From contig CBDESU010000002.1 in the NCBI GenBank assembly GCA_965242695.1, positions 544,001 through 608,000 on the forward strand: 64,000 bases of DNA. Direction: 5' to 3'. The first letter of the stretch is position 1, and each line of letters starts with the position of its first letter. Under the pieces are notes generated by a model. It saw only the letters and a program-made list of their open reading frames with translations. It was not told the origin of the DNA and did no database searches. The translations under genes were made by a program, and so were the position numbers. This DNA is from Cenarchaeum sp. (GTDB lineage Archaea; Thermoproteota; Nitrososphaeria; Nitrososphaerales; Nitrosopumilaceae). This document shows positions 1,547-57,064 of the stretch, piece by piece.

Positions 1547-2284
1547 ATGTATGCGGCGGACGGAGCGCCCGCGGGGGCGGGGGGCACGGGGCAGGCGGGC
1601 GGCGATGCGCACGGCACGGGGCAGGCCACGACCGCCGGAGGGGGCGACGCCATCCTGATCGCTGCGAACCGCAGGGGCTACGAGGCGCCCAAGCCGGACA
1701 TGGCAGGCGCGGAGATCAAGGAAATGGCAGGCGCGGTGCGGCGCCACGCGCTCGTACTCGCGGCCGGAGATCCGGGCGGAAGCCCCGGCAGGGGCAGCGC
1801 GGCGCGCGGCGACGATCACGGCGAGTATGTCGAGACCGTCTGTGCGCGGGCAGTGCACGGCGGGGACGGCGCCGCGCGCGGCCCCGTAAGCAGGGCGGCC
1901 GCGCCGGCCGATCTGCCTCCAAAGCTGCGCGAGCACATGGCTGTCCTAGAGGGCAGGGGCTACAAGGTCGAGGCGATCGACAATGGCGAGATAGGCATCG
2001 TCATAAAGGACTACAAGATCCCCGGCCGCATCTGGAGCAGGGAGACTGCGGACCTCAGGCTCTCGACTGACTCGGCGTACCCAGAGACCAAGATCGGGGC
2101 GTTCTGGCTCTGTCCCCCCGTGTCGCGCAGGAACGGAGACACCATAAGGGGGGCGGGCAGCACCGTATGGCAGGGCAGGACATGGCAGACGTTCTGCTGG
2201 TACGTGGTGCACTGGGATCCCAGGCACGACAACCTGCTGACGCACCTGGATGTGGTCGACGACAGGATGTGGAGGGACGAGTAA
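1547..2284 (+). CDS. Degenerate multiubiquitin-like domain fused to prokaryotic E2 family E (UBC-like) domain
   Basis: N-terminal part aligns by eye to the Ubl at 12979-13374 and ends VHGG. C-terminal part is GIVIKDYKIP…YPETKIGAFWLCPPV…WQTFCWY…WDPRHDNLLTHL. TATA-like CATATA near 1518. Confidence 0.8.
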   Translation: MYAADGAPAGAGGTGQAGGDAHGTGQATTAGGGDAILIAANRRGYEAPKPDMAGAEIKEMAGAVRRHALVLAAGDPGGSPGRGSAARGDDHGEYVETVCARAVHGGDGAARGPVSRAAAPADLPPKLREHMAVLEGRGYKVEAIDNGEIGIVIKDYKIPGRIWSRETADLRLSTDSAYPETKIGAFWLCPPVSRRNGDTIRGAGSTVWQGRTWQTFCWYVVHWDPRHDNLLTHLDVVDDRMWRDE

Positions 2285-2365: not shown

Positions 2366-3782
2366 TCACGGCCGCGGGCCGCCTCGAGTGCGTGGCAAGC
2401 GAGCCAGACTGTGAGGGTGTGCGGAGGCGAGTTTTGGCTGCGGCTGGATGGGCGGCAATTTTGCCGGCAGCCGGGCAAAAGCCGCCCAAGTGCCGGCACG
2501 CGCGCCGCCGTCGCGGGACCGATCAGCCTGTGGACTGGGTCTTGCAAGGTATTCCGGGCATTCCAGCCCCGCCAGGTCCTCGTCTGGCGTGCTTCCTGAC
2601 GATATGGCGAACAGTATGTCCGGGCGGGGCGCGGGCATCCCGTCGACTTCCTTCGTCATGGAAAGCTCCTCTTCCGCAACGCAGCCTAGGTTTCCAAGCG
2701 AGGCGCCTACAATCCTGCAGTTCTCGTGCGTTTGAGCGGCCTCCTCGACGGCGTCCCCGAGCTGGTGCCCCCCATTGGCTCCCGTCAAACGGCGTAGGCG
2801 CGGTAGTCGTACACGACCTTGGTCGAGCAGTCCAGACTTGCGGGCGGAGCGCGCCTGGATCGGATGTGTCCTGTGCTCCCGTACGGAGCCTCTCCGCAAC
2901 GGGCGCGCCGCGCCCGCCGCCGTCGACGGGTGGCGCCGTCCCGCCCCCGATCGCGTCCCTTGGCAGCGGATGGCTGCTTGCCCCCTAGTCGACGGCGGGC
3001 ACTCGCTACATGCCGGGCCCGGGGGCCGCCGCCGGGGCGGCGCCGCCGCGGCCGCGGCCCGTCCGCGCCCTGATGCCCGTGCGGGGCGGCCGGTCGATGC
3101 GGGCGACCTCCCGCATCTTCGATATCTTTTCGAGCAGGGGCCGGTCGCACCGAACCCTGAGCGCGCAGTAGCCGTCCGTCGTCATCTGGTCCGTGATGCG
3201 GCCGCCGTCGCCGCTGACCACCGCCCGCATGCCGCCCATGAACCTGGACAGCCGCTCGTCATCCAGCCTCCATATTTCCACGTCTACGTACTCTTGCCCG
3301 CTCTCCGGCAGCGGCCTGCGCGACAGGCCCGCGCCGATTTTTTCTTCCGGCGGAATCTCCCGGATGGCGCGCACCTGGTCCATAAAGCTGCCCGTCTTTG
3401 CCGCAGCATGCCGCTCCAGCTTCCGCCGAAGCCTTGCAAAGCTGGGATCGTCCGTGAGCCCGACCCAGTATCCGCTCCCGGCGGGCGCCGACGACACCGT
3501 CTCGATCCCCACGCCCGCAAGGGATCTGCGGAACGTCTCTTCGCGGACCCTCGAGTAGAGCTCCACCTTGAAGACCAGGTTCGGGCTAGGGAGCGAGCCC
3601 GCCGACTCCTTGTCCCGCCGGTACGACTCGCCCATTTCGTCGAGCAGCCTGGCCTGGGCGCGGGCGAACGCCGCGGGATCCCTGCCGGCCCTCTTGGCGG
3701 GCGCCCGCCTGGATCTTGGCCTGCCGGGCTCGCCCGCCCCTTGCAGGCCGGGGCGCCGGCGCCGCATCATGCTAGCGGGCAT
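2366..3782 (-). pseudogene. IetS-like S8 (subtilisin) serine protease: open N-terminal domain (3006-3782) followed by a decayed catalytic domain
   Basis: Overlaps the AAA ATPase stop. Past the stop at 3006 the frame reads RVPAVD*GASSHPLPRDAIG (IDSG…HPLL motif), then DGGGRGAPVA (D..GHGT.VA motif), and after frameshifts CRIVGASLGN…DILFAISSG. Confidence 0.75.
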
Positions 3783-4668
3783 CCGGCCCGACCGCCTCGA
3801 TGCGCCGCCTCTGCCCCTCTATGGCGCGCCTCACGCCGGCCTCGTCGACCGAGTCGGCGCCGCCGACCACCGCCTCCCGCAGCGCATCCTCGCTCGCCTT
3901 TGCGACGTCGGCCGCGGAGAATCTGTCCGTCATTCCGGCCAGCTCCCCGTACGGCATGCGGCCCGACTTCTTGAGGGCGCCCAGGTACTTTTCAAGCAGC
4001 CTCTCCCTCCTGCCCCGGTCTGGGTTGTCGTAGTATACGACATCGTCGAACCTCCGCCAGAGCGCCCGGTCGAGCAGGTGCTGGTGGTTGGTCGCCGCCA
4101 GTATGATGCTCCGCCCCCTAAAGTCGTCCATCATCTGCATGAAGTTGTTGACGAGCCGCTTGATCTCGCCGTGCTCGTGGGGATCGTCCCGCTTTTTGCC
4201 GACAATGTCGAACTCGTCGAACATGACGACGAACCTCCCGCTCTCGGCGAACTCGAATATCCGCCTCAGGTTCGAGGCCGTCTCGCCCAGGTACGGCGAT
4301 ACGATCGAGTCGAACATGACATGGACCAGCCTGTACCCCATCGCGGTGGCCACCACCTTGGCCGTGAGGGTCTTGCCGGTGCCCGGGGGCCCGCACAAGA
4401 GCACCCTGCTTGTCGGCCGCAGTCCGTAGCGGAGCAGGTCGTCGAACGCCTTGTTCTCGTCGACGATCCTCTCGAGCCGCGCCCTGACGTCGCCGGCGAC
4501 GATCAGGTCGTCGAACGCGTGGTGCTCGTCGCGCACCTGGAGCAGCGGGATGCCCTTGTCGGCGTCGCGGGGAATGACGAGCGGGCGGCGGGCGGGAGGG
4601 GCGCGGCTCTCCTTGGCCCTGCGGGGGCGCGGCCGCCTGACCAGGGTGCCGGCCTCTGTGGCTGCCAT
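3772..4668 (-). CDS. AAA+ ATPase, IetA-like (AAA/S8 protease pair)
   Basis: Walker A GPPGTGKT, Walker B VMFDEFD, family motifs RDDPHEHGEIKRLVN and LDRALWRRFD. Confidence 0.92.
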   Translation of the reverse strand: MAATEAGTLVRRPRPRRAKESRAPPARRPLVIPRDADKGIPLLQVRDEHHAFDDLIVAGDVRARLERIVDENKAFDDLLRYGLRPTSRVLLCGPPGTGKTLTAKVVATAMGYRLVHVMFDSIVSPYLGETASNLRRIFEFAESGRFVVMFDEFDIVGKKRDDPHEHGEIKRLVNNFMQMMDDFRGRSIILAATNHQHLLDRALWRRFDDVVYYDNPDRGRRERLLEKYLGALKKSGRMPYGELAGMTDRFSAADVAKASEDALREAVVGGADSVDEAGVRRAIEGQRRRIEAVGPDAR

Positions 4669-5548: not shown

Positions 5549-6028
5549 TCACCGCGGCAGCCTGCGCCTGAACTCTAGGATGGCCGACATGGCCGCGGCC
5601 GCCTCTTTGCGAGTAAACTGCGGCTTTTGGCTCAGCAGATCCTCCACTGCGGCATCGGCATCCTTGGCAGAAGCGCTGCGCCGCGGCAAGAGGTACCACA
5701 GCGATGCGTACAGCTCCAACGTCTTGGCAGAGTTGATCCCTCTTCCGAGCAGGCCCTTCATTCTTGCCACCACGCCCTCTTCATGCGGGGTCAGGCGCAG
5801 GTCTTCGCCCAGCCTGCCCATGGACTCGTGCCTGAACAGCTCCCTGGTCAGCGTAGGCGAGTACGGGCCGCGGTGGTACCACGAGAACATGAACCCGCCG
5901 GACGCCCCAAGCTCCCGCGCCAGGTAGCCTAGCTTCTGCAGCCGGAGGCGGTCCTCAAACCCGGCAAGCGACACGCCGCAGAACGAGTTTACTATCTTCA
6001 TGGTCTCGTTTTCATGCGCCGGCTCCAT
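5549..6028 (-). CDS. YwgA/SocA-like wHTH antitoxin-like protein (subfamily A)
   Basis: DRLRLQKLGYL…FSWYHRGPYSPTL…LELYASLWY…KPQF. TATA-like box at 6051-6058. Confidence 0.85.
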   Translation of the reverse strand: MEPAHENETMKIVNSFCGVSLAGFEDRLRLQKLGYLARELGASGGFMFSWYHRGPYSPTLTRELFRHESMGRLGEDLRLTPHEEGVVARMKGLLGRGINSAKTLELYASLWYLLPRRSASAKDADAAVEDLLSQKPQFTRKEAAAAMSAILEFRRRLPR

Positions 6029-6251
6029 GCGGGCGCGCGGCGAGGGCCATTTATTAAGATTCTTAGGTCGGGCGCTGGTCGATGGTAACCGGGCCGCGCC
6101 TGCCAACGGGTCGGAGGGATGGGAGGCAGGGCGGCGGCCAAGCCGCGTATGCGGCTACCCGCCTGGCCGCCCGCTCGGCCCTGAACGGAAGGACCGCGTT
6201 CCCTTTCGGCAAGGCAGAGACTTCAAGGGGATCTGGCGGGGGGGACTATAC

Positions 6252-7118
6252 GTGACGGATGCAGATACCCCGGGCGGCGGGAAAGGCCGCAGTGAAAAGG
6301 GTGCGGCGGCGGCCAGCCATTTCCTCATCGATGCGCTGCCAGAGTCCGACCGCTCGTCCGCCCGCGACACCTGCAACGCGATAAGGATCAACAGGGCGAT
6401 CGGCGCGCCGAGCCCGCCCGGGGACGACGCGGTTAGGACGCTGGAGCGCGTCGCCATGGCATACGAGCTGGCCGCAATAGACCAGTGGCCCGGCCACGCC
6501 GGAGGCAACGGCAACGGCGACGGGAGCGAAAACTTCCAGCGAACGTGCGCCGAGTGCTTTGCCCTGATGGAGGCGTGCCCCATCCCCGCCGACCCGGTCC
6601 AAATGATCGGCCACGTGCTGCGGGCCGTCTCGTACGCGTACATGGGGGAAAGGCGGGAGGATGCGAGGCGGTACGCAAGGGAGACGGCGCCGCCGCCCCC
6701 GGCCGGCGGCGTGGGCCCGCCAGGGGAGTGGGAGCGCCGCATCCTGTTCGGCATCTACGGCGCCGTCATGCTTGCGGTCGGGGAGGAGGGTCCGGAGGAT
6801 CTTGCAAGGGCATCGGAGGCCATCGCCGGCCTCAGGCGCGACCAGGCGGGGCACGAAAGGCCCTACTTCGAGTCGCTCGAGCCGGCGTACAGGGCCACGG
6901 CCGCGCACAGGCTCGTATCGCTGTACCACCTTGCAAAGTGCACCGACATGGTATGCGAGTACATGCGAAGCGGCTCGCCTGCGGACATAGGGGCGCTCCT
7001 AGACTGCCACTTTGACATTGCGTTGCGGCACAGCGACATCGGCGGCGCCGGATCGGCCGAACTGGACACACTTCTTCGAATCGTGCGGCCCATGTTCGCA
7101 AAGATGGTGGGCGGCTAG
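6252..7118 (+). CDS. Stand-alone alpha-helical domain resembling the N-terminus of Hachiman HamB-like DEAD/DEAH helicases
   Basis: LERVAMAYELAAI…HVLRAVSYAYMGER…WERRIL…IAGLRRDQ…RLVSLYHLAK…LDCHF. No helicase motifs. Paralog at 8801-9802. Confidence 0.7.
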   Translation: MTDADTPGGGKGRSEKGAAAASHFLIDALPESDRSSARDTCNAIRINRAIGAPSPPGDDAVRTLERVAMAYELAAIDQWPGHAGGNGNGDGSENFQRTCAECFALMEACPIPADPVQMIGHVLRAVSYAYMGERREDARRYARETAPPPPAGGVGPPGEWERRILFGIYGAVMLAVGEEGPEDLARASEAIAGLRRDQAGHERPYFESLEPAYRATAAHRLVSLYHLAKCTDMVCEYMRSGSPADIGALLDCHFDIALRHSDIGGAGSAELDTLLRIVRPMFAKMVGG

Positions 7119-7232
7119 GCCGCATCCGTGCGCCGGCAGGGGGGCGCGCCTGCAGGCATCCGGCGCGGGCCGGGTAGGGGCGGATCCGGCGCCGGGCAAA
7201 GCTTTTTCACGGGCCCCCTCGCGGGCGCGGCC

Positions 7233-7700
7233 GTGAGAAAGACCGACCTGCTCCTCCTGCTCCTGTACGTCTACGACCGCCGCCCCGTCGCCGGGCTGAC
7301 GCGGCTCGTCAAGCTCCTGTTTCTGGCGCAGGCGGAGGCGCTGCCCGACGATCCGCTGCGCGCGCGCGGGTGCGCCCCGTTCGACTTTGTGGCCCACCGC
7401 TTTGGCCCGTTCACGTTCGACATATACGACGAAGTCGAGTTCTTAAAGTCGGTCGGGATGATGGCCGGCGATGATAACGACGACGATGACGGGCAGTTTC
7501 GCATCACGGACAAGGGATGCAGGTTCGCCGAGCAGCGCCTGCTGCAGAGGATTCCCGCCGATCAGATCGAGGGCATCGAGGAGGTCAAGAAAAAGCACTG
7601 CGACGAAGATCTCGACGATCTCTTCTACTACGTCTATACAAAGTATCCCGCGTACACCGTCAGGACCGAGATCCTCGACAGGGTGCTGAGGCGCAGGTAA
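7233..7700 (+). CDS. YwgA/SocA-like protein (subfamily B)
   Basis: TDLLLLLLY…GLTRLVKLLFLAQ…FDFVAHRFGPF…YVYTKYP. Confidence 0.8.
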   Translation: MRKTDLLLLLLYVYDRRPVAGLTRLVKLLFLAQAEALPDDPLRARGCAPFDFVAHRFGPFTFDIYDEVEFLKSVGMMAGDDNDDDDGQFRITDKGCRFAEQRLLQRIPADQIEGIEEVKKKHCDEDLDDLFYYVYTKYPAYTVRTEILDRVLRRR

Positions 7701-7978
7701 GCCGGGCCGGCAACGCGCCGCCTGCGGGCCGGCAGGCCGGGCGATGGCGCCCGGCGCCACGCCGCCAAGTATGCGGGCGGCGGAGCCGATCCGTCGTACA
7801 GTGCGTGCGGTGGAGGCGGCGGAGGCGGAATGTCCACATGGCGGGGCCCCGCGGCGGTAGCGAACGCCACGGCCGAGATGGAAGTAGCGCGGGGGCCCGC
7901 GGCGACAGCGGGCGTGCACGGGCCGCAACGACAGGGGCCAGGCATTGCCGCCGCGCCGCGTCCGACAGGACGCAAGGC

Positions 7979-8007: not shown

Positions 8008-8517
8008 GTGTCGGCAGTGACGGATCCGGACGGCGCAGCCCGGGTGCTGCGCGTGCTGCGCACCTTTGGCCCCCTCGACACGGACAGCTTTGACAGCCGC
8101 CTGAGGCTGCAAATGCTCGCATACCTGATACAGGAGATCGGCGGCGGGGGGCCATACGTGCACCACTGGGCCATGCGCGGCCCGTACTCGGCGGGGCTCA
8201 CGGAGGATCTGGACGACGACAAGGAAAGGGGAGGCGGGGATCCAGCTGCGGATATCTCGGACGGCGACAGGGAGCTGGCGCAGCGGGTGAGGTCCCTCGT
8301 GGGCGACGTAGACGACCCCCTAGAGTCCGAGCTCTACGCATCGGTGTGGTTCTTGGCCCCCGCCAGGAGGCTGTCCGACTCGGAAAGGGCGCACATTAGG
8401 GAGAGCATGCGGCGCGCAAAGCCCCACTTTGCAAAGGAGCGGGTCGGCGAGGCGCTCGGCGCCATAGAGGCGTTCCGCGCGGGGAGCGGCGCGGCGCCGC
8501 AGGGCAGCGCAGGCTAG
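8008..8517 (+). CDS. YwgA/SocA-like protein (subfamily A)
   Basis: FDSRLRLQMLAYLIQE…WAMRGPYS…ELYASVWF…KPHF. Confidence 0.85.
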   Translation: MSAVTDPDGAARVLRVLRTFGPLDTDSFDSRLRLQMLAYLIQEIGGGGPYVHHWAMRGPYSAGLTEDLDDDKERGGGDPAADISDGDRELAQRVRSLVGDVDDPLESELYASVWFLAPARRLSDSERAHIRESMRRAKPHFAKERVGEALGAIEAFRAGSGAAPQGSAG

Positions 8518-8800
8518 GCCGCGCCCGCCCCTGCCGCCCCGGCCGGCCAGGGCCGATGCCAAGGCGGGCGCAAGCCCGTCCCCGTCGTCCTGGACGGCGG
8601 CGCTGGCGCAGAGCGGGCGCGTCGATGCCTGCAAGTCCGCCTTTACGGGGACGAAGAGGGGGGGGCATTCCGCCGGGCCCGCCGGCATGCCGCATCCCGG
8701 CGCACAGATCCCGCACGCTTCCCGGCTCGGGCCACGCCGCCGCGGCGCGCGACGGGCTGCCGCCATCCACCCTTTTATGCAGCCGCCGCAGCGGCCGACG

Positions 8801-9802
8801 GTGCAGCAAGGCGACGCGGCGCGTTCCATAATCGACGAGCTGGACAAGGACAGGGTGCGCGCCGCGTTCGAGGCCGTGCGCAGGCTAGAGACGGAGCGAG
8901 CGAGGGCGAAGGAAGGCGGGCGCGGCGTGGCAGGGGCGGCTGCAAATGCGGGCAGCATGGACGACATCAAGTACGTGGCCACGGCGTACGAGATGTCCGC
9001 CATATTCATGTGGCGGTACGCGGCGCGCGGCGGAGGCGCGGCGGCGGATGCCAAGGGGGAGGAGGCGGGCGCGGCGCGGCGCGCCGGCGAGCTGGAAGGC
9101 CTGTGCCGCACGGCCTTTGCCTTGATGGGGGCGTGCCCCGTGCCGGACAAGCCGGTCCAAAAGATCTGCCATGTCCTGTCCTTGTTCTCGTACGCGTATG
9201 TGGGCGGGAGGGGGGAGGACATGGGGCACTACCTTGACGAGCGCGGCGAAGAGGCGTCCCTGCCCGAGGTCAAGGTGGAGGGATCCGGCATGGGCTGGGA
9301 GTACGACATGCTGGCCGGAATATACTCGGCCCTGCTGTGCGTCATCAGGGGGCGCGACGCGGCCGAGCTGCGGCGCGCACGCGGCACGATAGCGCGCCTG
9401 CGCCGCATGCAGGGGCTGCACGAGCGGGACCACATCGAGTCGTTTGCGCCCGAGCACAGGTTCTGGCCCGCGCGCCGCCTCGCCGCACTGTACCACCTGG
9501 CGAGGTGCGTCGAGCTGCTCGCCGAGTTCATGGAGACGGGCAGGCCCGGCGGCATCGAGCGGGAGCTCGACTTCCACTTTGACGAGGCGTTTAGCCACGG
9601 CTGCGATGCGGGATCGGCCGAGCTTGACGTGCTGCTCCGGACGGTGCGGCCCGCGTTCGTGAGGATGGCAAGGGGCGCTGCCGGGGCGCCGGCAGGGCCG
9701 GCGGGCAACGGCAACGGCGCGGCCTGCCTGGCCGGCCGGAGGGGCCCGGACGGGGGCGATACAGAATCGACCCGACAGCAGACGGAAAAAAGGCAGGGGT
9801 GA
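8801..9802 (+). CDS. Second stand-alone HamB-like N-terminal helical domain
   Basis: VATAYEMSAI…HVLSLFSYAYVGGR…IARLRRMQ…RLAALYHLAR…LDFHF…SAELDVLLR. Clear paralog of 6252-7118. Confidence 0.7.
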   Translation: MQQGDAARSIIDELDKDRVRAAFEAVRRLETERARAKEGGRGVAGAAANAGSMDDIKYVATAYEMSAIFMWRYAARGGGAAADAKGEEAGAARRAGELEGLCRTAFALMGACPVPDKPVQKICHVLSLFSYAYVGGRGEDMGHYLDERGEEASLPEVKVEGSGMGWEYDMLAGIYSALLCVIRGRDAAELRRARGTIARLRRMQGLHERDHIESFAPEHRFWPARRLAALYHLARCVELLAEFMETGRPGGIERELDFHFDEAFSHGCDAGSAELDVLLRTVRPAFVRMARGAAGAPAGPAGNGNGAACLAGRRGPDGGDTESTRQQTEKRQG

Positions 9803-9807
9803 CGCCC

Positions 9808-10281
9808 TCACACGTGGCCGCGGAACTTTTCGATCCGGGCCAGCGCGGCCTCTACGTCGCGGGTTCCAAAGTGGCGCTTTTCCTCCCCCATCCTGGCAAT
9901 GATCGACCGCCTGTCCTCCTCGGACAGGGCGCGGTCGGGGGCCAGGTAGCACACCGAGGCGTACAGCTCCAGCCGCAGCGGATCGTCCACGTCGTCGCCC
10001 ATGAGCGCCTGGACCTTGTACGCCGCCCCCCGCTCCGAGGGAGTGAGCTCGGGGTTGTCCTCGTACGCCCCAAGCTCGTCGCCCGAGCAGAGCATCTGGG
10101 TGAGCGACGGCGAGTAGGGCCCCCGTATGTACCAGTGGAAGAGAAAGGGGCCCCCGCCGCCCATCTCCTGTATGAGGAATGCGAGCTTTTGGAGCCGCAG
10201 GCGATCGCCAAGGCCGTCGATCCTGATGGGGCCCAGGTACCGCAGTATCCTCAGGGTCCTGTTCTCGTCGTATATGCTCAA
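9808..10281 (-). CDS. YwgA/SocA-like protein (subfamily A)
   Basis: DRLRLQKLAFLIQE…FHWYIRGPYSPSL…LELYASVCY. TTG start inferred. Confidence 0.85.
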   Translation of the reverse strand: MSIYDENRTLRILRYLGPIRIDGLGDRLRLQKLAFLIQEMGGGGPFLFHWYIRGPYSPSLTQMLCSGDELGAYEDNPELTPSERGAAYKVQALMGDDVDDPLRLELYASVCYLAPDRALSEEDRRSIIARMGEEKRHFGTRDVEAALARIEKFRGHV

Positions 10282-10532
10282 TGCCGGGGTGGATATGCCG
10301 CGGCGTTTATGCGTTCTTGTGCGGCTGCCCGGCGCCCGGCGCCGCCCCGCAGGGGCGCCCGTGCGGCAGGCGCGACGCTGGCGCAGTGCGCCGGCGGCCA
10401 CCAATATGCGGCGCCGGCAGAAGGGCGGATGGAAGGACGGCGCGCTCAAGGGCGGCCGCCGGCCGGGAGGCAGGGCGGCGGCGGCAAAAGACGAAAGGGG
10501 GCGAGGCGGACGGAGGCCATGGCGGCCGCCGG

Positions 10533-11009
10533 CTAGCGGCTGCTCCTGCGAAACTCCTCGATCTCGGCGAGCGCCGCGGCCACCTGCTCCTCTTTGAAGT
10601 GGGGCTTTGCGCACCGCATGGTCTCTATGATGGACTCCCTGTCCCCCTCGTCTAGGTTGGCCATGGGGGTGATGTACCACACCGCTGCGTACAGCTCCAG
10701 CGTCAGGGGATCGTCGATCCTGCCGTGCACGAGCGACCTGACCCTGCCGGCGATCCGCCGGTCCTCCTCTGTGATGGGGGCCCTGCCGGGCGGATCGTCG
10801 TAGTCGCACCAGAAGCGCAGCTCCCTGGCAAGCGCCGGCGAGTTCGGGCCGCGTATCTGCCAATAGTACCCAAAGCTGTGGTAGTCGCCCACCTCTTGGA
10901 TCAGAAACGCCAGCTTTTGCATGCGGAGGCGATCGTCAAACTTGTCGATGCGTATGGGGCCAAACGACTCTAGTATGTTCAGCGTCCGCATCATGTCCCG
11001 TCCGTACAC
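10533..11009 (-). CDS. YwgA/SocA-like protein (subfamily A)
   Basis: FDDRLRMQKLAFLIQE…WQIRGPNSPAL…LELYAAVWY…KPHF. TATA-like TTTTTAAG at 11031-11040. Confidence 0.85.
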   Translation of the reverse strand: MYGRDMMRTLNILESFGPIRIDKFDDRLRMQKLAFLIQEVGDYHSFGYYWQIRGPNSPALARELRFWCDYDDPPGRAPITEEDRRIAGRVRSLVHGRIDDPLTLELYAAVWYITPMANLDEGDRESIIETMRCAKPHFKEEQVAAALAEIEEFRRSSR

Positions 11010-11228
11010 TGCCGAGGGCGCATGCGGGCGGCTTAAAAACGGTTCGAGTCCGGGTCGGGCGCCGCGGCGCCCGTCCCGCCGTCGCATCTGCGCAGGGTGC
11101 GTGCCCTTATTTCTTCAGGCGGCACATGCGGCCAAGAGACTCACGGTTCCCGGGGCCGCACGTTCGGGATCGCGGCGCCGCTCCCGCCGGTCACAATTGC
11201 GGCAAGCCCGGCCGCCCCGCGCGCCCCC

Positions 11229-12602
11229 TCACGTGGCATCCCCCGCGTACGGCGCCGACAGCGGCATGCAGCCGCCCCTGCCCGTCCTCGCGGCGCACAC
11301 GCAGCCCGGCCTGGCCCTCGACGCGGGAAAGGTCGTCTCTAGCGTGCCGACATCGACGAGCAGCATGCTCCGCGCAGGATCCGTAATTCCGAACAGCATG
11401 TCCTTGAGCAGGAGCACCGCGTAGCTTGCAGCCATTGTGGTGAGCGACACGACCGACGGGGCCTCTTCGTCGCCTAGGCCTACGACGTACCCCTCGCGCT
11501 CGCGCGCCCTCCTGTCGGCGGGATCGAGCGACTCTGCCAGTATCCTGTCGGGGCTGATTATGCCCGAGCAGAACAGGCACGGGAGTGACGGCGCGACAAT
11601 GCTCGCCCTCACGGTGCCGCCGGCCATCCTGCCGTCCCTCGAGTCTATCCCCACCCCTACGTCGATGACGGGCACAAAGTACTGGTACGCGAGCTCGTTG
11701 AGCACGCTGCGCGGCGCCTGCCTGTCGGTGCAGCCGAACACCATGTCGCACTCACCGAGGCATGCGAGCGCCTCCTGCGACACAATGTCCATGGCCGCCG
11801 CGTCGACGGCGGCATCGGGCGCAATCCTCCCAATGTTCTCCTTTACGACCTCCACCTTTGGCCTGTCCCGCGTGGCGGCGTCCGTGCCGTACATGCGCGT
11901 CAGGTTGCTGGCCGAGAACGCATCGCGGTCGACCAGGGTGAAGCGCTTCACGCCCGCCCTGGCAAGCTGCTCGGCGACCGACGAGCCGGTGCCGCCGACG
12001 CCGGCTATGCCCACCCTGATGCCGGACAGTATCCTCTGCCCGGCGATCCCGAACGCGCGGATCTGCCGGTCGTACAGGGACGTGTCGACGGTGTCCTCGC
12101 CCGCATTATGGGCGAGCGGCCGCATGGCCATCCGGCGGCCCACCACCCTGAGCTCGTCGATCGGCTCTACGCCGCCGTCCTCGGTCCACACCCTGCCCGC
12201 CATCGACTCTGGCCCGAAGAGGAGGCTCCCCATCGGCCTGCCGTAGAGGCACTTTCTGACGGTGTCCGACGACTCGGACTCGCCGTAGTCGTCCGACGGG
12301 GAGTACTCCAGGGCCGCGCCTCCGAGCGGGTGCGTGTGCATCTGGATAACGGTGATGCCGTCCGCATCGGCCGCCCCGATCGCCCTGTTGAAGTACAGGG
12401 GGGATATCTCCAAGTGTCGGGCGGTGCGCACGTTGTAGTCGCGCTCGCCGGGGATCAGGACGTCCCTGACGGCAAGGTGGATTCCGCGCTCGGTCCTAAA
12501 GTATCCCGCGGTGGCAAGGGCGGCCGACTCGACGCTCCGGTCCTGGAGCAGGTACCGGCGCAGCGTGGCAAGATGCTCAGATGTGATTCTGACCGTGTTC
12601 AT
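11229..12602 (-). CDS. JAB/MPN peptidase fused to ThiF/E1-like adenylyltransferase
   Basis: JAB motif E…HTHP-x7-SPSDD. E1 motifs YDRQ, GVGGTGS, DRD…SNLTR, GCTD, PCLFC…GY and C-terminal CVC. Confidence 0.92.
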   Translation of the reverse strand: MNTVRITSEHLATLRRYLLQDRSVESAALATAGYFRTERGIHLAVRDVLIPGERDYNVRTARHLEISPLYFNRAIGAADADGITVIQMHTHPLGGAALEYSPSDDYGESESSDTVRKCLYGRPMGSLLFGPESMAGRVWTEDGGVEPIDELRVVGRRMAMRPLAHNAGEDTVDTSLYDRQIRAFGIAGQRILSGIRVGIAGVGGTGSSVAEQLARAGVKRFTLVDRDAFSASNLTRMYGTDAATRDRPKVEVVKENIGRIAPDAAVDAAAMDIVSQEALACLGECDMVFGCTDRQAPRSVLNELAYQYFVPVIDVGVGIDSRDGRMAGGTVRASIVAPSLPCLFCSGIISPDRILAESLDPADRRAREREGYVVGLGDEEAPSVVSLTTMAASYAVLLLKDMLFGITDPARSMLLVDVGTLETTFPASRARPGCVCAARTGRGGCMPLSAPYAGDAT

Positions 12603-12604
12603 GG

Positions 12605-12982
12605 TCACTCGTTCCTGCTCATCCGGTCGTCCACTACGGTCAGGTACGTCAGCAGGCTGTCGTGGACGGGATCCCAGGTCCCCACGTGCCAGCTGAAGCG
12701 CTGCCACTGCCTTCCGAACTGGTCCTCGATCGTCGCGGCGTTGACCGGGGCGCCGCGCCTTAGCGACACGGGCGGGTCGAGCCAGAACATGTCGATCGTC
12801 GCGTTCGGGTACGTCGGGTGCGTCTTGATCAGCAGGTCGGCCGACGGCCTGTCCCAGATCTCGGCCGGGATGGGATAGTCCTTGACGACGATGCCGATCT
12901 CGTCGCCCAGTATGGTCTCTACCGTGCGGCCCTCTTCGCGCAGCCTGTCAATGTCGGCCTGGAGGGCGGGCGGCAGCCTCAC
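12605..12982 (-). CDS. Prokaryotic E2 family E (UBC-like) protein
   Basis: GIVVKDYPIP…YPNATIDMFW…WQRFSWH…WDPVHDSLLTYL. Overlaps the Ubl gene (GTGA) and abuts JAB-E1. Confidence 0.88.
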   Translation of the reverse strand: MRLPPALQADIDRLREEGRTVETILGDEIGIVVKDYPIPAEIWDRPSADLLIKTHPTYPNATIDMFWLDPPVSLRRGAPVNAATIEDQFGRQWQRFSWHVGTWDPVHDSLLTYLTVVDDRMSRNE

Positions 12983-13374
12983 GGGACATCACCGGGCCCC
13001 CGCGGCGTTGGGCGGGGCTGCAAGTGCCTGGCGTCCGGCGTCTTGATATGGTTCAATGTCCCGCCGAACGCGCCCGCGTTTACGATGCGGAACCTCATTC
13101 CGCCTGCAAGGTTGACGGACTGGTCGTCCAGTACGGCCTCGCCGTCCCCGCCCGGCCCCGCGGCGGGGCCGCCCTCGATCCGGATGACCAGGCGGTTCAT
13201 CGGCTCCTTTGCCAGCCTCTTGAGGTCGGCGCCGGTCATCGAGGGCCCGTCGACCTGGTACGCTGTGTTGTTGATGGAGATTGTGATGCGATCGGCGCCG
13301 CCCGTGCGCGCAGCCGGGCCCGCGGCGCCGCCGCTGCCGCCGGGCGCGGGGCCAGGCTCCCCGTTGTCCGCCAT
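12979..13374 (-). CDS. Multiubiquitin-family ubiquitin-like protein with C-terminal extension
   Basis: ITISINNTAYQV…MTGADLKRLA…VLDDQSVNLAGGMRF…AGAFGG plus a tail. TATA-like TAAATATG at 13396-13403. Confidence 0.82.
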   Translation of the reverse strand: MADNGEPGPAPGGSGGAAGPAARTGGADRITISINNTAYQVDGPSMTGADLKRLAKEPMNRLVIRIEGGPAAGPGGDGEAVLDDQSVNLAGGMRFRIVNAGAFGGTLNHIKTPDARHLQPRPTPRGPGDVP

Positions 13375-13516
13375 TCCGACTTCACTTTGCATGTGCATAT
13401 TTAGACCATGCCCGCAGGCCGTGCGCGGGTCGAACGCATATCCAGATCTATGGGACGGTGCGCGCCGGGCAGGGATGCGCCTTCCCCTGTACCTTGCCGG
13501 GATTGCGCTTCCGGCC

Positions 13517-14746
13517 TCAAAGATAGTCCTCAAGCTTGTCTGCATGGCCCTTTGCCAGCGCCCTGAGGACCGCCCCTCCCCTGTACCTTGCCAGCATGTC
13601 CTTTTTCCGCATGGCCGGCAGGATCGAGCCGTTGCGCATGAATGTCTCGGCCTGGGCGGAAAACTCGGCATCCAGGAGCGCCGCGTTGCGCGCCGCGTTC
13701 TGCCGCTTGTCGGCGTACCGCGGATCCCGGGTCCAGACGTAGTAGTACGAGTCCCGATCTAGCAGGCGGGCCTTGCGGCCGGCGGCAGCCTGCGCCGAGC
13801 AGGCGGGGGGCGGGGGGCGCCTCGGCTCCCTGTTCGATCCTATGATGCTCGCTCCGGCCACGGATGCAAGCACGTCGGACGCGGGGCTCGGGCCGGCGGC
13901 GGCTCCCGGTGCGATCTCGCGCCCCATGTTGGCAAAGTATGCGACGGACCTGCCCGTGTTGCCCGACTCGAGTATGCGCCTGTGCGCGTACGCGATCCTG
14001 TCCATCGTCGCATTGCTGACGGCCTTGCCCTCAAAGTCGAACCAGAGGCAGAGGCGGTCCTCGGCAATGTATAGTCACGAGCACATGTCCTTGACCCTCT
14101 TTTTGCTGCATCGACGCCTAATCGATGCACATAAAAGGGTCAGGAACTTATGCTCGGGACTATAGTGGTCCATGAGCCTGGACATGTCGGCGTGCGACAG
14201 CCTCAGCGACACCGGCACGAATATGGGCTTGGCGTTTCGGGTGTCCAGTATGTCAAAGGCCGAGTCGACAAAGCCGATGTAGTCGTCAATGGTCGGCCCG
14301 GCGCCGACGTCCAGGCACGACGTCCTTGGCATGCGCATGTTGGGAACTGTCAGGAACAGGGTCGAGAACTGGCAGTACATGTCGAACAGGGCGCACCACC
14401 TGTCCTCGCCCTCGCTACTGTCCACGCACGGGTTGAATGCGAGGGTGAAGTTGACCACGGTGGGCAGGCCCAGCCAGCGCTTGCGGTTGAAGAACTGGCA
14501 TATCCTGCCGTCGTCGCGCTCGTCCATTAGGGCGGCGATCGTCGACTCGCTCCGTATCTCCCTGGACGTCTCGGCCACCGCAAGGCCGCGCGCGGAGCCC
14601 TTCCCGTATGCCGACTCGGTCAGGCCGCGCGCATCGAGAGTCTTGAGGGGCCTCTCGAAGCGGGTGTTTCCTATCCTGAACCGCTTTACGCTAAACCAGG
14701 TCTCTTTGTCCTGATGGGACTCTGCGATGTCGATGACGCCCGTCAT
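13517..14746 (-). pseudogene. Conserved-looking hypothetical protein (about 380 aa) interrupted by a MITE
   Basis: ORFs 14075-14746 and 13517-14005 share a frame. Removing 93 bp restores …RLMDHY-IAEDRLCLWFDFEGK…. Confidence 0.8.
14072..14162. mobile_element. 91-bp MITE-like inverted-repeat element with TA target duplication (IS630-like signature)
   Basis: Left end TAGTCACGAGCACATGTCCTTGACCCT. Reverse complement of right end TAGTCCCGAGCATAAGTTCCTGACCCT. TA at 14070-71 and 14163-64. AT-richer than flanks. Confidence 0.85.
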
Positions 14747-16006: not shown

Positions 16007-16492
16007 TTACCGCCTCATCTTGCGCTTGAACTTTAGTATGGCAGACGCCGCCCCGGCCGCCTCTTCGCGTGTGAACTGGGGCTTGCGGCTGAGCAGCTCG
16101 TCCACGGCCGAGTCCGCGTCCCCGGCCGTTGCGGCGCGGCGCCGCGGGAAAAAGTACCAGAGCGACGCGTAGAGCTCCAAGTCGTAGGAAGAGTCGATCC
16201 CGTCGCCGAGCAAATCCCTCATCCTTGCCACCACGCCCCTTTCGCGCCTAGTCAGGCGCTGCTCAGCTCCCAGCCTGCCCTGCGACTCGTACCTGTACAG
16301 CTCCTTCGTCAGTGTAGGCGAGTACGGGCCGCGGTGGTACCACGAGAACATGAACCCGCCGGATGCCCCGAGCGCCTGCGCCAAGTAACCGAGTTTTTGG
16401 AGCCGGATGCGATCCTCGAATCTTGCGAGCGTGACATGGCAGAACGAGTTGGCTATCCTCATCGTCTCGCTGTCGCTGTACGTCGGGGGCAA
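16007..16492 (-). CDS. YwgA/SocA-like protein (subfamily A), close paralog of 5549-6028
   Basis: FEDRIRLQKLGYLAQALGASGGFMFSWYHRGPYSPTLT…LELYASLWY…KPQFTR. Confidence 0.87.
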   Translation of the reverse strand: MPPTYSDSETMRIANSFCHVTLARFEDRIRLQKLGYLAQALGASGGFMFSWYHRGPYSPTLTKELYRYESQGRLGAEQRLTRRERGVVARMRDLLGDGIDSSYDLELYASLWYFFPRRRAATAGDADSAVDELLSRKPQFTREEAAGAASAILKFKRKMRR

Positions 16493-16596
16493 TAGGGGCG
16501 CGCCGGAGAGGCGGCTATTAATAATTTTTCCCGCGGCGGCCAACGGCCGCGGCCGCGCCCGCCAAGAGATAAAGCCGGCGCACGGGGCGGCGGCCC

Positions 16597-17415
16597 ATGG
16601 CAGATCCCGACACGGCCGCGGACGGCGCGCCGCGGATCGGCGACGGCTCGTCCGTGCGCGGCGACGTGAGCCTCGGCGACGGCGTCCGCATAGGCAGGGG
16701 CTGCGTCATAGAGGGGGCGGTATCGATAGGCGGCCATACGCGAATAGACGACTACTGCGTCGTGCGCGGCCGCATTACCATGGGCGAGGGCAACTGGATA
16801 TACCCGTTCTGCACCATAGGGACGGGGCCGCAGCATACCGGGCATCCGGAGGATCCCGCGGCCGACCCCGCCGAGGACCCCGGCAAGGGCGAGATCGTCA
16901 TGGGGTCGAACAATACAATGAGGGGGTACGCCTCGATAAACCTCCCGTCCGTGACGGCCCGCACCGAGGTCGGGTCGGGCTGCCACCTGCTTGCATACTC
17001 GCATGTGGCGCACGACTGCACGGTGCGCGACGGGGCCATCCTGTCGGCCGGCGTCATACTGGGCGGGCATACCGAGGTCGGCGCAGGCGCCCACCTTGGC
17101 CTCGGGACGATGGTGCACCCGCACACCAGAATAGGCAGGCTCGCCATGGTCGGCCTGCGCGGCGCCGTCACAAAGAACGTGCCGCCGTTTGCGCTGATCA
17201 ACGACGGCCGGTTCACGAGGGTCAACGCGGTGGGGATGGAGAGGGCCGGGATGGCCGAGTCCGAGATCGCCGAGGTCAAACGCGCGTACGAGGCGATGGC
17301 CGGCGGGGGAGGGGACATGCCCTACGGGGGAGGCGGGCAGGACGGGGCCTTGGCCGGGGAGATACGCGGGTTTGTGAAAGCCTCGGAGCGGGAGTGCTAC
17401 GCGCCGCAGTTCTAG
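16597..17415 (+). CDS. LpxA-like hexapeptide-repeat acyltransferase
   Basis: Hexapeptide repeats, IGTGPQH, YSHVAHDC, LGGHTEVG, KNVPPF…VNAVGMERAG. Confidence 0.85.
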   Translation: MADPDTAADGAPRIGDGSSVRGDVSLGDGVRIGRGCVIEGAVSIGGHTRIDDYCVVRGRITMGEGNWIYPFCTIGTGPQHTGHPEDPAADPAEDPGKGEIVMGSNNTMRGYASINLPSVTARTEVGSGCHLLAYSHVAHDCTVRDGAILSAGVILGGHTEVGAGAHLGLGTMVHPHTRIGRLAMVGLRGAVTKNVPPFALINDGRFTRVNAVGMERAGMAESEIAEVKRAYEAMAGGGGDMPYGGGGQDGALAGEIRGFVKASERECYAPQF

Positions 17416-18635: not shown

Positions 18636-19982
18636 TCATCCCCTCGCCAGCCTTGCCCTCTGCCGCCGGCCCGCATCCGTCAGCTCGTACCTGCGCCTGT
18701 TCCCGCCGAGCTCGGCGGCGAGCCCGCTGTGCAGCAGGACGTCCATGCACGCCCTGGCCGGCTGCCGGCCGCCGCCTGGGCGCCCTCCTAGGAGCGCGGC
18801 GAGGTCCGCCAGTGCGAACGGCCCGTCGGGAAGTCCCAAAAGCGCGCCGTGCAGCATCGAGCCGTCCTCGCCGGGGCGCCCAAGTCTCAGCCGCGTCTGC
18901 CTGCCCGACGCGGCGAGTATGAAGCACATGTACGAGCCGGACTCGTCCCTGTAGTAGGCGCGCATGCCGCCGCTGCCACCGCGCACCTCCCCGTCCGAGC
19001 CCCTGCCGAACTCTAGCCGGTAGCCTGGCGGCACGTTGGCCGACATGTCGGCCGTTTCGGTCTCGAAGAAGCCGCTCTGCCCGCCGTCGTGCCACGCCTC
19101 CTTGTGGAATACGGGGATCAGGTGGTCGCTCAGCTGCAGGCGTCCGCGGAGACGCCTCTTGGCCAGGGCGACGTACGCGGGCTCGATGTCGAGCCCGATG
19201 TAGCGGCGCCCCAGGTTGCGGGCCACCTTTGTCGTCTGCCCGCTGCCGTTCATCGGGTCGAGCACCAGGTCGCCCTTCTTTGTGAGCAGCGTGACGAGCC
19301 TCCACGGTATCTGCTCGGGGAACGGGACGGGGTGGTCGACCATATTCGGGGGGACGGGGGCGATGTGCCAGATCGAGTTTGCGATCTCGCGCTTGACGAC
19401 GCGGTTGAGCGGTATCTGCTCGCCGCGGTCGGCGGCGGCCGCGCGCTGCGCCTGCCCCTCCTTTTGCAGGACCAGAATGCACTCGTGCATGATGTTGGCC
19501 CGAAAGTAGCCGGGGCGCCTGTGCTTTATGAACACGCCGCACCGGTTGCCCGCGCCGTTGCGGCCCGAGGTCGTCTTGTGCCATACGATGGTGTCGCGGA
19601 GGCGCCACTTTGCGGGGTCGTCGTCGTTTTCGGTGCTCGCCATGCGCGAGGCGATCAGCGAGGAGAGCGGTATTGTCTTGCCGTTGACCACCTCGTCGCC
19701 TATGACTATGGCGCAGAACCCGCCCGGGCGGGTCGCCTCGAGGACTTGGCCGAATATTGCCTCCATGTCGTCTAGGTACGCGGCCGTCGTCGACGTGCCC
19801 GTCCCCCTCATCCACTTCTTGTCCCGGCTCTTCTGGTTGGCGACGTGCTGCCTGTAGTCGATCGCGTTGCGGTAGGGAGGGGACGTTACGGTCAGGTCTA
19901 CCGAGCCGGGCCTTATGTGCCTGCAGAGATCGCGCGCGTCGGCGCGGATGATCCTGCCGTCGGGCGGCGCATCCCGCGTCAG
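18636..19982 (-). CDS. Site-specific N4/N6 DNA methyltransferase (beta order)
   Basis: The frame extends upstream of the listed ATG 19811 through IIRADARD…VDLTVTSPPY. Also IVWHK, HPVPFP, VLDPMNGSGQT, YIGLDI. Start uncertain (CTG 19982 or frameshift). Confidence 0.88.
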   Translation of the reverse strand: MTRDAPPDGRIIRADARDLCRHIRPGSVDLTVTSPPYRNAIDYRQHVANQKSRDKKWMRGTGTSTTAAYLDDMEAIFGQVLEATRPGGFCAIVIGDEVVNGKTIPLSSLIASRMASTENDDDPAKWRLRDTIVWHKTTSGRNGAGNRCGVFIKHRRPGYFRANIMHECILVLQKEGQAQRAAAADRGEQIPLNRVVKREIANSIWHIAPVPPNMVDHPVPFPEQIPWRLVTLLTKKGDLVLDPMNGSGQTTKVARNLGRRYIGLDIEPAYVALAKRRLRGRLQLSDHLIPVFHKEAWHDGGQSGFFETETADMSANVPPGYRLEFGRGSDGEVRGGSGGMRAYYRDESGSYMCFILAASGRQTRLRLGRPGEDGSMLHGALLGLPDGPFALADLAALLGGRPGGGRQPARACMDVLLHSGLAAELGGNRRRYELTDAGRRQRARLARG

Positions 19983-35317: not shown

Positions 35318-36524
35318 CCACCCCCACCTTTTTGCAGAGGCCGTCGAGGTGCTTGAGGTCTATGTCGAGGTAGTCGCCAAGATCAAGGGCCGTAATGGCC
35401 CCCCTTTCATGCGACGAGACGGCGAGCCTGATGAACTTTCGGCCCATTCGCGATATAAGAATGACCGGGTACTGCGGCCCGCCTTTTTCCTCTTCCTCTT
35501 CCTCTTCCTCTTCCTCGCCTTCGTCCTTGGGCTTTTGCCTGCGGCTGTGGTGCCCCGCCACGCCGTTGAGGACGCCGCCGTACGCGGTACGGTGCCTGCC
35601 GCCCGGCATGTCGGCGGCTCTGACCGCCGCAGCGTACCTGCTCACCTTGAACCTTCTAGCAAGATCCTTGACGATCTCGAACGGGTCGTCCGACTCCCCC
35701 TCAAGCCTCTTGCGCTCGGCGGCGAACTCGGCCCCCGGCATCAAGAAGGAGGCGGCAAAGCGGTTGCACCACATCTCCGCCCGCTTCCTGTCCGAGTCCA
35801 AGCGCGCCGTTCCGTGCTCGTCGCAGACGCCGCCCATGCCAAGCAGGATGTGGCCGTACTCGTGCAGCAGGGTAAAGGCCTTGGCCTGGTCAATGTCCTT
35901 TGAGTTGACCAGTATTGCGCGCGGGTCGGTGTCCGCCAGGGACAGCCCGCACACGCCTTCCGTGGCCAGCGGGTACTGGAACACGAATATGTTCAGCCCC
36001 TCGATCGCCCTGCGAAGCATCCCGTACATGTCACGAGACGATCCCCCGACAGGCCCGTCGAGGCTCCCCGCCACCGCAAGCCTGGCCCGCTCCGCGCGCG
36101 CCGTCTCCTCGGCGGAATCGTCCACGGTGACCCCCGCGGGGATGTCCGGCCCGGCGGCAATGCCGCGGGCGTCCATCATCTCCCCTGCGGCGGACTGCAT
36201 GTAGCGCACGCGCCTGACTGTGGGCAGGTCTCCGGCATCCAGCCTTTCCGGGGCGTTGCGCATCATCCTAAAGTCTGGCAGGTGCTCGCGTTCGGGCGGA
36301 ACCGTGCTGAGGAGCAGGTTCTCGGACATTTTTACGCACTTGGCCAAGGCCCTCACCATCGTGTACTCAATTTTGCCGGTGCTGGCCCAGTCGTCGACTC
36401 GCATCCTGTCGACCCCCAGCTTCCGCGCTATGGTGTCGTGATCCATGCCGCTGCTCTCGATGATCGACCTTACGACGAGCGGCTTGAGCTGCAGCCCAAT
36501 GCGGGGCGTGCGGGGAGCCATCAA
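35310..36524 (-). CDS. XRE-HTH plus ImmA/IrrE zinc metallopeptidase (RosmerTA RmrA-like)
   Basis: HTH, LPDFR, IFVFQ, AFTLLHEYGH, EMWCNRFAASFLMP, RFKVS. Confidence 0.9.
   Translation of the reverse strand: MMAPRTPRIGLQLKPLVVRSIIESSGMDHDTIARKLGVDRMRVDDWASTGKIEYTMVRALAKCVKMSENLLLSTVPPEREHLPDFRMMRNAPERLDAGDLPTVRRVRYMQSAAGEMMDARGIAAGPDIPAGVTVDDSAEETARAERARLAVAGSLDGPVGGSSRDMYGMLRRAIEGLNIFVFQYPLATEGVCGLSLADTDPRAILVNSKDIDQAKAFTLLHEYGHILLGMGGVCDEHGTARLDSDRKRAEMWCNRFAASFLMPGAEFAAERKRLEGESDDPFEIVKDLARRFKVSRYAAAVRAADMPGGRHRTAYGGVLNGVAGHHSRRQKPKDEGEEEEEEEEEEKGGPQYPVILISRMGRKFIRLAVSSHERGAITALDLGDYLDIDLKHLDGLCKKVGVGE
35487..35516. repeat. (TTCCTC)x5 microsatellite encoding a poly-Glu tract
   Basis: Read directly. 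Absent from the paralog at 58675-59862. Confidence 0.9.
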
Positions 36525-56772: not shown

Positions 56773-57064
56773 CTGAGCAGGTCAATCCGGCGCAGGTCCG
56801 ACCCGCGAAACCGCTTCTACACCAGGTACGACATTCCGCTGGGGAATTCGGTCGAGCGGGACGCGTGGGTCGTCAACTGGCCGCGGCAGTACGACGACGA
56901 GGAGCCGGGCGAGGCCATGGAGAGCGTCCTGGCCCGGATCGACGGCAAGCTCGACGGAATCACCGACGTCGATGCGGCCCTCAAGTGGCGCAACACGCGC
57001 AAGTTCTGCACCGACATGCTCGCCGAGTAGGGGGCGGGGGGCGGTGCTGAATCGGGCCCGCGCG

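Follow-up and report, generated by a model that had tools for sequence, protein, structure and literature searches.

Orphan BubB-like E2 proteins with a replaced catalytic triad in an archaeal genome: candidate nucleophile-independent variants of the Bub system

Bub pathways are recently characterised systems for the conjugation of ubiquitin-like proteins (Ubls), and their defining trait is that they conjugate without a catalytic cysteine. According to the main text of Ye et al. (bioRxiv 10.1101/2024.11.21.623953), the E1 of these pathways, BubCD, uses a tyrosine in its crossover loop (Y370), and the E2, BubB, uses an invariant serine (S333) together with H335 and D299. The serine is reported there to be invariant in alignments of 107 BubAB and 400 BubBD proteins, and the system is said to work 'entirely through oxyester intermediates'. 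BubAB is a Ubl-E2 fusion that is cleaved by the JAB domain of BubCD after a conserved glycine, the two C-terminal helices of the UBC proteins are missing from the BubB fold, and BubE (DUF6527), a Ser-His protease, is said to occur in all Bub operons. Here we describe two genes of this family that lie outside any such operon in a 64,000-nucleotide stretch of DNA (the window) from the archaeon Cenarchaeum sp. (family Nitrosopumilaceae; GenBank assembly GCA_965242695.1, contig CBDESU010000002.1, positions 544,001 to 608,000). The host genome (G000) has 3.89 Mb in 2 contigs with a GC content of 67-68%; the window corresponds to C2:544001-608000 and has 69% GC. By the score of its 16S/23S rRNA operon the genome is archaeal (SSU_rRNA_archaea, 1450 bits). 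An earlier reading of the window, made from the sequence only, had stated that Bub-type pathways use oxyester chemistry and include an enzyme with a Ser-His dyad; this agrees with the preprint, in which the dyad enzyme is BubE.

We read the two genes, called copy a and copy b below, as neofunctionalised E2 variants that derive from a BubAB protein, would no longer depend on a nucleophile, and would act either like the eukaryotic ubiquitin E2 variants (UEVs) or as a regulatory decoy by docking on the Bub machinery resident in the genome. We give this reading an even chance of being right. UEV proteins (Mms2/Uev1a, the UEV domain of Tsg101) keep the E2 fold, do without a catalytic nucleophile and operate beside active E2s. 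The orphans 'work alike' only by comparison: there is no sequence kinship with UEVs beyond the E2 superfamily, and most members of the orphan clade still carry a cysteine. Resident machinery is present in the form of two complete Ubl/E2/JAB-E1 operons with an Asp-Ser-His E2 and a Tyr E1, one of them in the window. The Bub operons in the main text of 10.1101/2024.11.21.623953 are described in bacteria and all have bubE, whereas the host here is an archaeon, and a search for BubE/DUF6527 (PF20137) in six frames of its whole genome gave no match among the 22 candidates scored.

A six-frame motif scan of the window finds WQTFCWY at 2183-2203 and 57984-58004 on the forward strand and WQRFSWH at 12706-12686 on the reverse strand. 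All three motifs lie in proteins above the gathering cut-off of the Pfam family Prok-E2_E (PF14462, 25 bits), with 55.4 bits for copy a, 56.6 for copy b and 85.0 for the operonic E2. The motifs themselves are as the sequence-only reading had them, a serine motif in the operon and a cysteine motif in both orphans. Copies a and b are paralogues (85% identity over 300 nt, 89% over the E2 domain), and both share 51% identity with the operonic E2. Copy a (1547..2284, forward strand) has 245 residues from an ATG at 1547, in a frame that is open from a GTG at 1400; in it, a linker joins what is left of an eroded Ubl to a BubB-like E2 domain (1904..2281). Copy b (57570..58085, forward strand) has no more than the E2 domain (57714-58082) and, ahead of it, a short stretch left over from a Ubl tail. 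In contigs of four sequencing runs that cover 1300-2400, copy a appears nearly unchanged, together with a second, copy-b-like form over 1914-2283; among the matches listed, the Cys codon at 2195-2197 does not vary.

When copy a is aligned by HMMER to sequences of the PDB, its TFCWY falls on RWSRH of Citrobacter BubB (9eae_C), so that Cys217 (TGC, 2195..2197) takes the position of S333 and Tyr219 (TAC, 2201..2203) that of H335. The Ser-to-Cys and His-to-Tyr variants proposed from the motifs are thus placed on the catalytic residues themselves. Both arise by single-base codon changes (AGC to TGC, and CAC to TAC or TAT). Beyond what had been proposed, the third catalytic residue is also replaced: IDMFW reads IGAFW in both orphans, with Gly184 of copy a (2096..2098) at the position of D299, and the same glycine is found in all members of the clade. 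The equivalent codons of copy b are Cys 57996-57998, Tyr 58002-58004 and Gly 57897-57899. Neither orphan has the invariant Ser/His/Asp triad of BubB; both have Cys, Tyr and Gly instead.

The fold itself is well retained. A structural model of copy a, built with AlphaFold2 (AF2) from a 52-row alignment, has predicted local distance difference test (pLDDT) values of 91-98 over residues 121-240, and its best match in Foldseek is BubB 9eae_C (E 1.5e-7, template modelling (TM) score 0.82 on the target, root mean square deviation 1.7 Å, 121 columns). The model and this match show the truncated UBC fold of the BubB type in the E2 domain of copy a, and together with the sequence alignment the check by structure prediction and superposition, which the earlier reading had asked for, puts the cysteine at the active-site position. 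Matches to chains of Ube2N/Ubc13 and Ubc9 are weak (E 0.2-1.4, TM 0.38-0.47 on the target). With the canonical UBC E2s (Pfam UQ_con) the orphans share a cysteine at the equivalent nucleophile position, but they match only Prok-E2_E in Pfam at E<=0.1, Multi_ubiq not being found in copy a at that threshold either, and no HPN motif is seen. The orphans share with BubB (Type I Bub, formerly 6E.1/DUF6527; Citrobacter structures 9eae/9eav) the Pfam family, the fold and an ancestry in a Ubl-E2 fusion; they differ in all three catalytic residues, in having no adjacent E1 and in their eroded Ubl.

The reading as nucleophile-independent variants is carried by the relatives of the orphans. At E<=0.001, HMMER matched 120 of the 1.84 billion representatives searched, and at 50% identity just one of these (P0010) stands for the whole orphan type. 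Two word-indexed searches yielded 19 clusters of orphan-type relatives at 90% identity, all from ENA or Logan assemblies. Prok-E2_E matches occur in 8 of 201 genomes of the same family, and the orphan type only in the host and in one congener (G071), which has a Phe-type orphan and three canonical E2-E1 operons. Pattern searches for further orphan relatives matched 13 viral, 284 metagenome and 127 genome contigs, none of which contained a relative. For comparison we used 117 other rows of the family, made up of 50%-identity representatives and close Ser-type relatives, after 6 fragmentary, duplicate or misframed rows had been dropped. The S333 position is Ser in 113 and Cys in 4 of these rows, as against 15 Cys, 3 Phe and 1 His in the 19 rows of the orphan clade. 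The D299 position is Asp in 112 of the 117 and Gly in 19 of 19, and the H335 position, His in 111 of the 117, holds seven residue types in the orphan clade and varies more there than any other column of the domain (2.5 bits). With P0143, P0144 and the copy of the congener added, the clade has 22 members, with 16 Cys, 5 Phe and 1 His at the nucleophile site; the His site is distributed as Y5, N6, E4, S2, K2, D2 and F1.

In a maximum-likelihood tree the orphan clade is recovered as monophyletic with 100/100 support; it has a long stem (0.74) and is sister to Ser-type fused BubAB proteins. Within the clade, and within what is one 50%-identity cluster, the cysteine has been replaced in four separate places. 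Two sublineages carry Phe throughout: the P0019 cluster (16 members) reads FFWD in 15/15 members listed and has no Cys in its last 122 residues, and the P0014 cluster reads FFWK in 15/15. These Phe forms are stable populations and not errors. Site rates computed with IQ-TREE (21 rows, 122 columns, mean 1.02, median 0.71) give 2.35 for the Cys column (rank 13, 2.3 times the mean) and 2.63 for the Tyr column (rank 4), whereas the Gly column has 0.42 (rank 83 of 122). A survey of CWY variants had been proposed as a check on the cysteine chemistry; among the relatives of the orphans, both the Cys and the Tyr position vary. The clade has twelve fixed residues that other members of the family seldom carry, and most of them flank the old active site (R171, D175, G184, S205, T206, W208, T215, V220, V221). 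Taken together, the long stem followed by slow evolution, the rebuilt and fixed surface and the two freed catalytic positions look like neofunctionalisation to a non-catalytic role, unlike what would be expected of a catalytic cysteine.

The sequence-only reading had gone in another direction and suggested an altered, thioester-type chemistry that could use the operonic JAB-E1 in trans. In the form in which we considered it, the Cys-bearing orphans would be active E2s, charged by the Tyr-type JAB-E1 of a resident Bub operon with the Ubl of that operon as a Ubl~Cys thioester; they would serve the system as a further E2 that acts on another range of targets, and the Phe and His forms would be inactivated derivatives. 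The cysteine does lie exactly at the catalytic position and is the majority state of the clade. Still, its column is among the fastest of the clade, it has been lost four times independently, and two large sublineages, one of them without any Cys, have kept the same conserved domain with Phe throughout. A thioester E2 should conserve its catalytic cysteine across relatives, and this is not what the orphan clade shows. Of the suggested chemistry, the position of the residue has held up, and so has the plausibility of a Cys E2, as described below; that the cysteine defines the function of these proteins has not. Overall we consider active thioester E2s rather unlikely.

The plausibility comes from a separate group of Prok-E2_E proteins. 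In four other representatives the Ser position is occupied by Cys (P0099, P0141, P0101 and P0094), and with four relatives of P0099 (P0145-148) they form a set of eight. In this set the cysteine is invariant (8/8, down to 32% identity) and is one of only 16 invariant columns, the His position is occupied by Q, N or S, and the catalytic Asp is lost as well. One such E2 lies in a tight Ubl/E2/JAB-ThiF E1 operon on L031:5757-8548, a contig titled as belonging to a metagenome-assembled genome of an uncultured Candidatus Bathyarchaeia. The Ubl (5757-6023) matches Multi_ubiq below the Pfam cut-off (E 0.009), the E2 (5998-6387) has Cys at the catalytic Ser position in RFCWN, and the E1 (6384-7814) retains the crossover-loop Tyr (RSYISG), the loop being free of Cys. 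By their sequences, Cys-type Bub E2s that are served by a Tyr E1 very probably exist, and the gene content of this operon suggests a natural mixed oxyester/thioester relay of the Bub type. Because of this operonic, invariant-Cys clade with a Tyr E1, thioester chemistry is plausible in principle for the family, and a Gly-Cys-Tyr site such as that of the orphans need not be dead. The downstream neighbour of the L031 operon encodes a Csa3/HFX_2341-like protein.

The same clade also shows what a catalytic cysteine looks like. It resembles the orphans in belonging to the same family, in having Cys for Ser, in having lost His and in being archaeal. Its cysteine arose independently of that of the orphan clade, is invariant and belongs to an operonic E2 between a Ubl and an E1, and the orphan clade shows none of these three traits. 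Since a catalytic residue stays invariant, as it does there, and the orphan cysteine varies, the latter does not behave like a catalytic residue.

Charging in trans would draw on a resident Bub operon, and in the operon of the window the E1 is intact. The architecture of this operon is, by gene order and domain content, that of Type I Bub (formerly 6E.1). The BubA-like Ubl (12979..13671, reverse strand, Multi_ubiq) probably starts near 13398-13372; its domain ends in AFGG (last Gly codon 13060-13062), and a tail of 26 residues follows. The BubB-like E2 (12605..12982, reverse strand) begins with a GTG that overlaps the Ubl stop codon as GTGA, so that Ubl and E2 are separate genes and not a fusion. 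It has the complete triad Asp64 (12791-12793), Ser97 (12692-12694) and His99 (12686-12688), which HMMER aligns with D299, S333 and H335 of Citrobacter BubB 9eae_C (E 2.8e-6, PDB sequences). The BubCD-like E1 (11229..12602, reverse strand, JAB-ThiF, 457 aa) aligns to BubCD with E 7.7e-32 and has kept the JAB residues E25, H89, H91 and D104, Arg179 of the adenylation site and the crossover-loop Tyr372 (REGYVVG, codon 11487-11489), with no Cys inside the loop. It also has a CxxC at 342/345 (window 11568-11579) and a CxC at 434/436. More generally, archaeal BubCD-like E1s have an invariant CxxC just ahead of the crossover loop and a CxC near the C-terminus, and Citrobacter BubCD has non-Cys residues aligned at the CxxC. 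Presumably the two motifs resemble the zinc site of the ThiF/MoeB type.

Against charging in trans stands the fact that the orphans have no E1 of their own and a Ubl that is decayed or missing. None of the five ThiF genes of the genome adjoins either copy, and the nearest BubCD is the one at 11229-12602, on the opposite strand. Neither orphan has the adjacent JAB-E1 and BubE of a Type I Bub operon. The second canonical Type I operon of the genome lies outside the window (G000:C2:~101400-104800, loci L002/L016); there the fourth genomic Prok-E2_E protein, a fused Ubl-E2 at C2:~103 kb (…ATFG|S…, WQSFSWH), is followed by a second JAB-E1, which is 58% identical to that of the window.

The remnant of the Ubl in copy a was noticed in the sequence-only reading as a Ubl-like domain ending in VHGG that would mirror the AFGG of the operon Ubl. 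The domain is confirmed. Residues 34-106 (1646..1864, forward strand) are a remnant of a BubA-like beta-grasp domain with a conserved first half that ends in ...RAVHGG. The N-terminus matches the operon Ubl in BLASTP (E 6e-5 over residues 34-61), the AF2 model has strands and a helix at residues 36-104, and in Foldseek the N-terminal part is matched by BubA 9ea8_B (probability 0.98) as well as by the BubA or multi-ubiquitin chains 9cd2, 9d5a and 8u38. The mirrored end is less clear. To the intact Ubl of its closest fused relative, P0004, copy a can be aligned by BLASTP only over residues 1-73. The C-terminal strand of the family, GMRFRxVN..FG, has become YVETVCARAVHGG, which is 4 residues shorter, and pLDDT falls to 56-67 in this diverged strand. 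VHGG is thus literally present, and its equivalence to the processing glycine is uncertain. A simple frameshift was considered for the odd C-terminal half and rejected, as the other two frames of 1641-1960 contain no MRFRxVN strand. Decay of the fused Ubl, which had not been noted before, extends across the clade. P0004-6 and P0179 still have the intact domain, in copy a it has half decayed, and P0007 has lost most of it; in all other members it is missing or out of frame, and copy b has only a vestige of the last Ubl strand ahead of its E2 domain. Upstream of the Phe-type orphan of the congener (L020:9561-9965), a Ubl remnant can be read in another frame (…IAVNRQA…EEIRRMAGAP…), and judged from these frames the Ubl of this orphan is lost through frame disruption.

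Such stepwise erosion would also fit another explanation, namely that the orphans are decaying relics of a duplicated BubAB gene, open frames without a function. They have no operon, they have lost the catalytic triad, they lie in a neighbourhood rich in insertion sequences (IS) and paralogues, and their distribution is narrow, with one 50%-identity cluster and two of the 201 family genomes. However, the ratio of nonsynonymous to synonymous substitution rates (dN/dS, Nei-Gojobori) over the E2 domain is 0.25 between copies a and b (dS 0.26) and 0.33 and 0.35 against the copy of the congener, and 61/126 columns are invariant across 15 members of the clade. By these measures the genes are not drifting neutrally. 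In addition, frames are intact in about 20 clusters, several of which have 5-16 distinct members, the clade has its own invariant residues, and two copies are retained in one genome at dS 0.26. We therefore regard relics as improbable. A nucleophile position that is not conserved, combined with a fold under purifying selection, is what a UEV-type protein would show, and the orphan clade shows both.

A further possibility concerns the cysteine itself: the old nucleophile position and the residue in FWLxPP could pair up as a redox or metal-binding site, sensing a signal instead of carrying a Ubl. This pair is C/C in both window copies. Cys or His is present at the FWLxPP site in 19/21 rows and at the nucleophile site in 17/21, and combinations such as H/C and C/H are found elsewhere in the clade. 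Others are Y/C, C/F, H/F and Q/F, in stable lineages, and two ligands are too few for a metal site. A sensor of this kind seems highly improbable to us.

For the non-catalytic variant that we prefer, the following course of events may be proposed. A BubAB (Type I Ubl-E2 fusion) gene would have been duplicated in this archaeal lineage, and the Asp-Ser-His site would have been dismantled, with Asp replaced by Gly, Ser by Cys and His by a range of residues. Around the former active site, the surface would have been rebuilt and then fixed, and the fused Ubl would have begun to decay. Selection would now keep the E2 fold and the new surface, without a nucleophile. The orphan would dock on a component of the resident Bub machinery, with the crossover loop of the E1, the Ubl and the active E2 as candidate partners, and would in this way modulate conjugation; we infer both the partner and the direction of the effect. 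As the genome has no detectable BubE, the negative regulator of the family, we lean towards the orphan as a competitive brake, with a UEV-like cofactor as the alternative. A complex prediction with residues 165-456 of the E1 (9-row alignment) and the orphan E2 domain (14-row alignment) gave 0.00 in two runs without controls and is counted neither for nor against docking.

Several points weigh against a non-catalytic role. Both window copies and 16/22 members of the clade keep the cysteine, which is the majority and probably the ancestral state. Two of the four losses rest on single sequences, P0020, which is a cluster of one, and P0006, the only one of the 6 full-length sequences in its cluster to have His; the His form of P0006 deserves little weight. 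The dN/dS values are rough, being derived from three sequences of a genome with 69% GC. Since the operonic Cys clade has shed Asp and His too, the loss of both in the orphans is by itself no proof of inactivity. Among the members from metagenomes, about 20 in number, some might belong to operons, above all those whose Ubl is intact.

In the lineage of the window, a BubB paralogue has escaped the constraint on the invariant serine, and its relatives argue for a non-catalytic variant rather than a cysteine enzyme. If this is true, prokaryotic Ubl systems evolved regulators from inactivated enzymes in parallel with the eukaryotic UEVs, and the orphans would offer a handle on the control of Bub where BubE is missing. 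The operonic invariant-Cys clade would qualify the description 'entirely through oxyester intermediates' and provides a natural test of Ser versus Cys on one scaffold; as a lead on the chemistry of the family it arguably outweighs the orphans, although it lies outside the window. Both findings extend Bub-type operons to archaea. The strongest form of these proposals would be that the orphans are the first pseudo-E2 (UEV-like) of prokaryotic Ubl conjugation, regulating archaeal Bub operons that lack BubE as a decoy for the E1 or a cofactor of the active E2, and that Bub is not uniformly an oxyester system, with the operonic invariant-Cys clade running a mixed oxyester-to-thioester relay. We put this forward tentatively, as a possibility with somewhat less than an even chance. 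In a full-text literature search, the gene names of the family were used only in two 2024 preprints. A term search of the main text of 10.1101/2024.11.21.623953 found no mention of UEV or of an inactive, Cys-type or archaeal BubB, while its supplementary operon table may list archaeal or Cys-type operons.

The orphans are located in a region that is a defence island rich in paralogous modules, with IetA/IetS-like, CapP-like and Mrr_N genes as neighbours, a setting that would suit an active E2 as well. Downstream of copy a, on the opposite strand, lies an IetS-like/IetA-like pair (3006-3782 and 3772-4668). The window contains two such paralogous pairs, at 3006-4668 and 45121-46775, both on the reverse strand. 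Their IetA-like AAA ATPases are 57% identical, with 254 bits to the PADLOC IetA model, and the gene upstream of each encodes a partner of about 258 aa that weakly matches IetS. Copy b lies between a DUF488 gene and a convergent gene for a CapP-like HTH-M78 peptidase. Further upstream are a gene of the Mrr_N/type IV restriction type (54222-55343) and a DDE transposase of an IS element (55259-56614, reverse strand), followed by the DUF488 gene (56972-57520). The orphan of the congener (L020 9923-10342, FFWD) has this Mrr_N-type gene upstream of it, separated by other genes, and its position is syntenic with that of copy b; the transposase and the DUF488 gene look as if they had been inserted between the Mrr_N gene and copy b. 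The CapP-like protein (58675-59862, reverse strand, 395 aa) has an N-terminal HTH-like segment and a Peptidase_M78/CapP-like domain (PADLOC capP 1.5e-15) and is arranged tail-to-tail with copy b; DNA paralogous to its gene is found at 35554-35853. According to the main text of the preprint, CapH+CapP regulators stand beside 31% of Bub operons (10.1101/2024.11.21.623953).

A conserved orphan-specific operon partner was sought among the open reading frames (ORFs) up to some 10 kb away from copies a and b and from the copy of the congener, and none was found. Besides the E2, the contexts have in common a weak transposase-like match (copy a and the congener), a paralogue of the IetA-like AAA ATPase (copies a and b) and the Mrr_N protein (copy b and the congener). 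The ORF upstream of copy a (197-1003) has no match in Pfam or PADLOC, and an Atlas search gave only sub-threshold leads (best 0.82). Around the Bub operon of the window there are five paralogues of about 170-185 aa with an RLQKL motif and no Pfam match, at 5549-6106 (-), 8008-8517 (+), 9808-10863 (-), 10533-11087 (-) and 16007-16543 (-). Two of them are paired with members of another family, of about 370 aa, at 6000-7118 (+) and 8687-9802 (+), which has further copies elsewhere in the genome. As a substitute for BubE the family of about 170-185 aa was rejected, since the window has five copies and the other Bub loci searched have none. Within a few kb of the operon lie an N6/N4 DNA methylase (18636-19811, reverse strand) and a hexapeptide-repeat acyltransferase (16597-17415, forward strand). 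Finally, an ORF that runs from 63192 to the end of the window contains five tandem units of 102 nt (63494-63973), which encode 34-residue TPR-like repeats.

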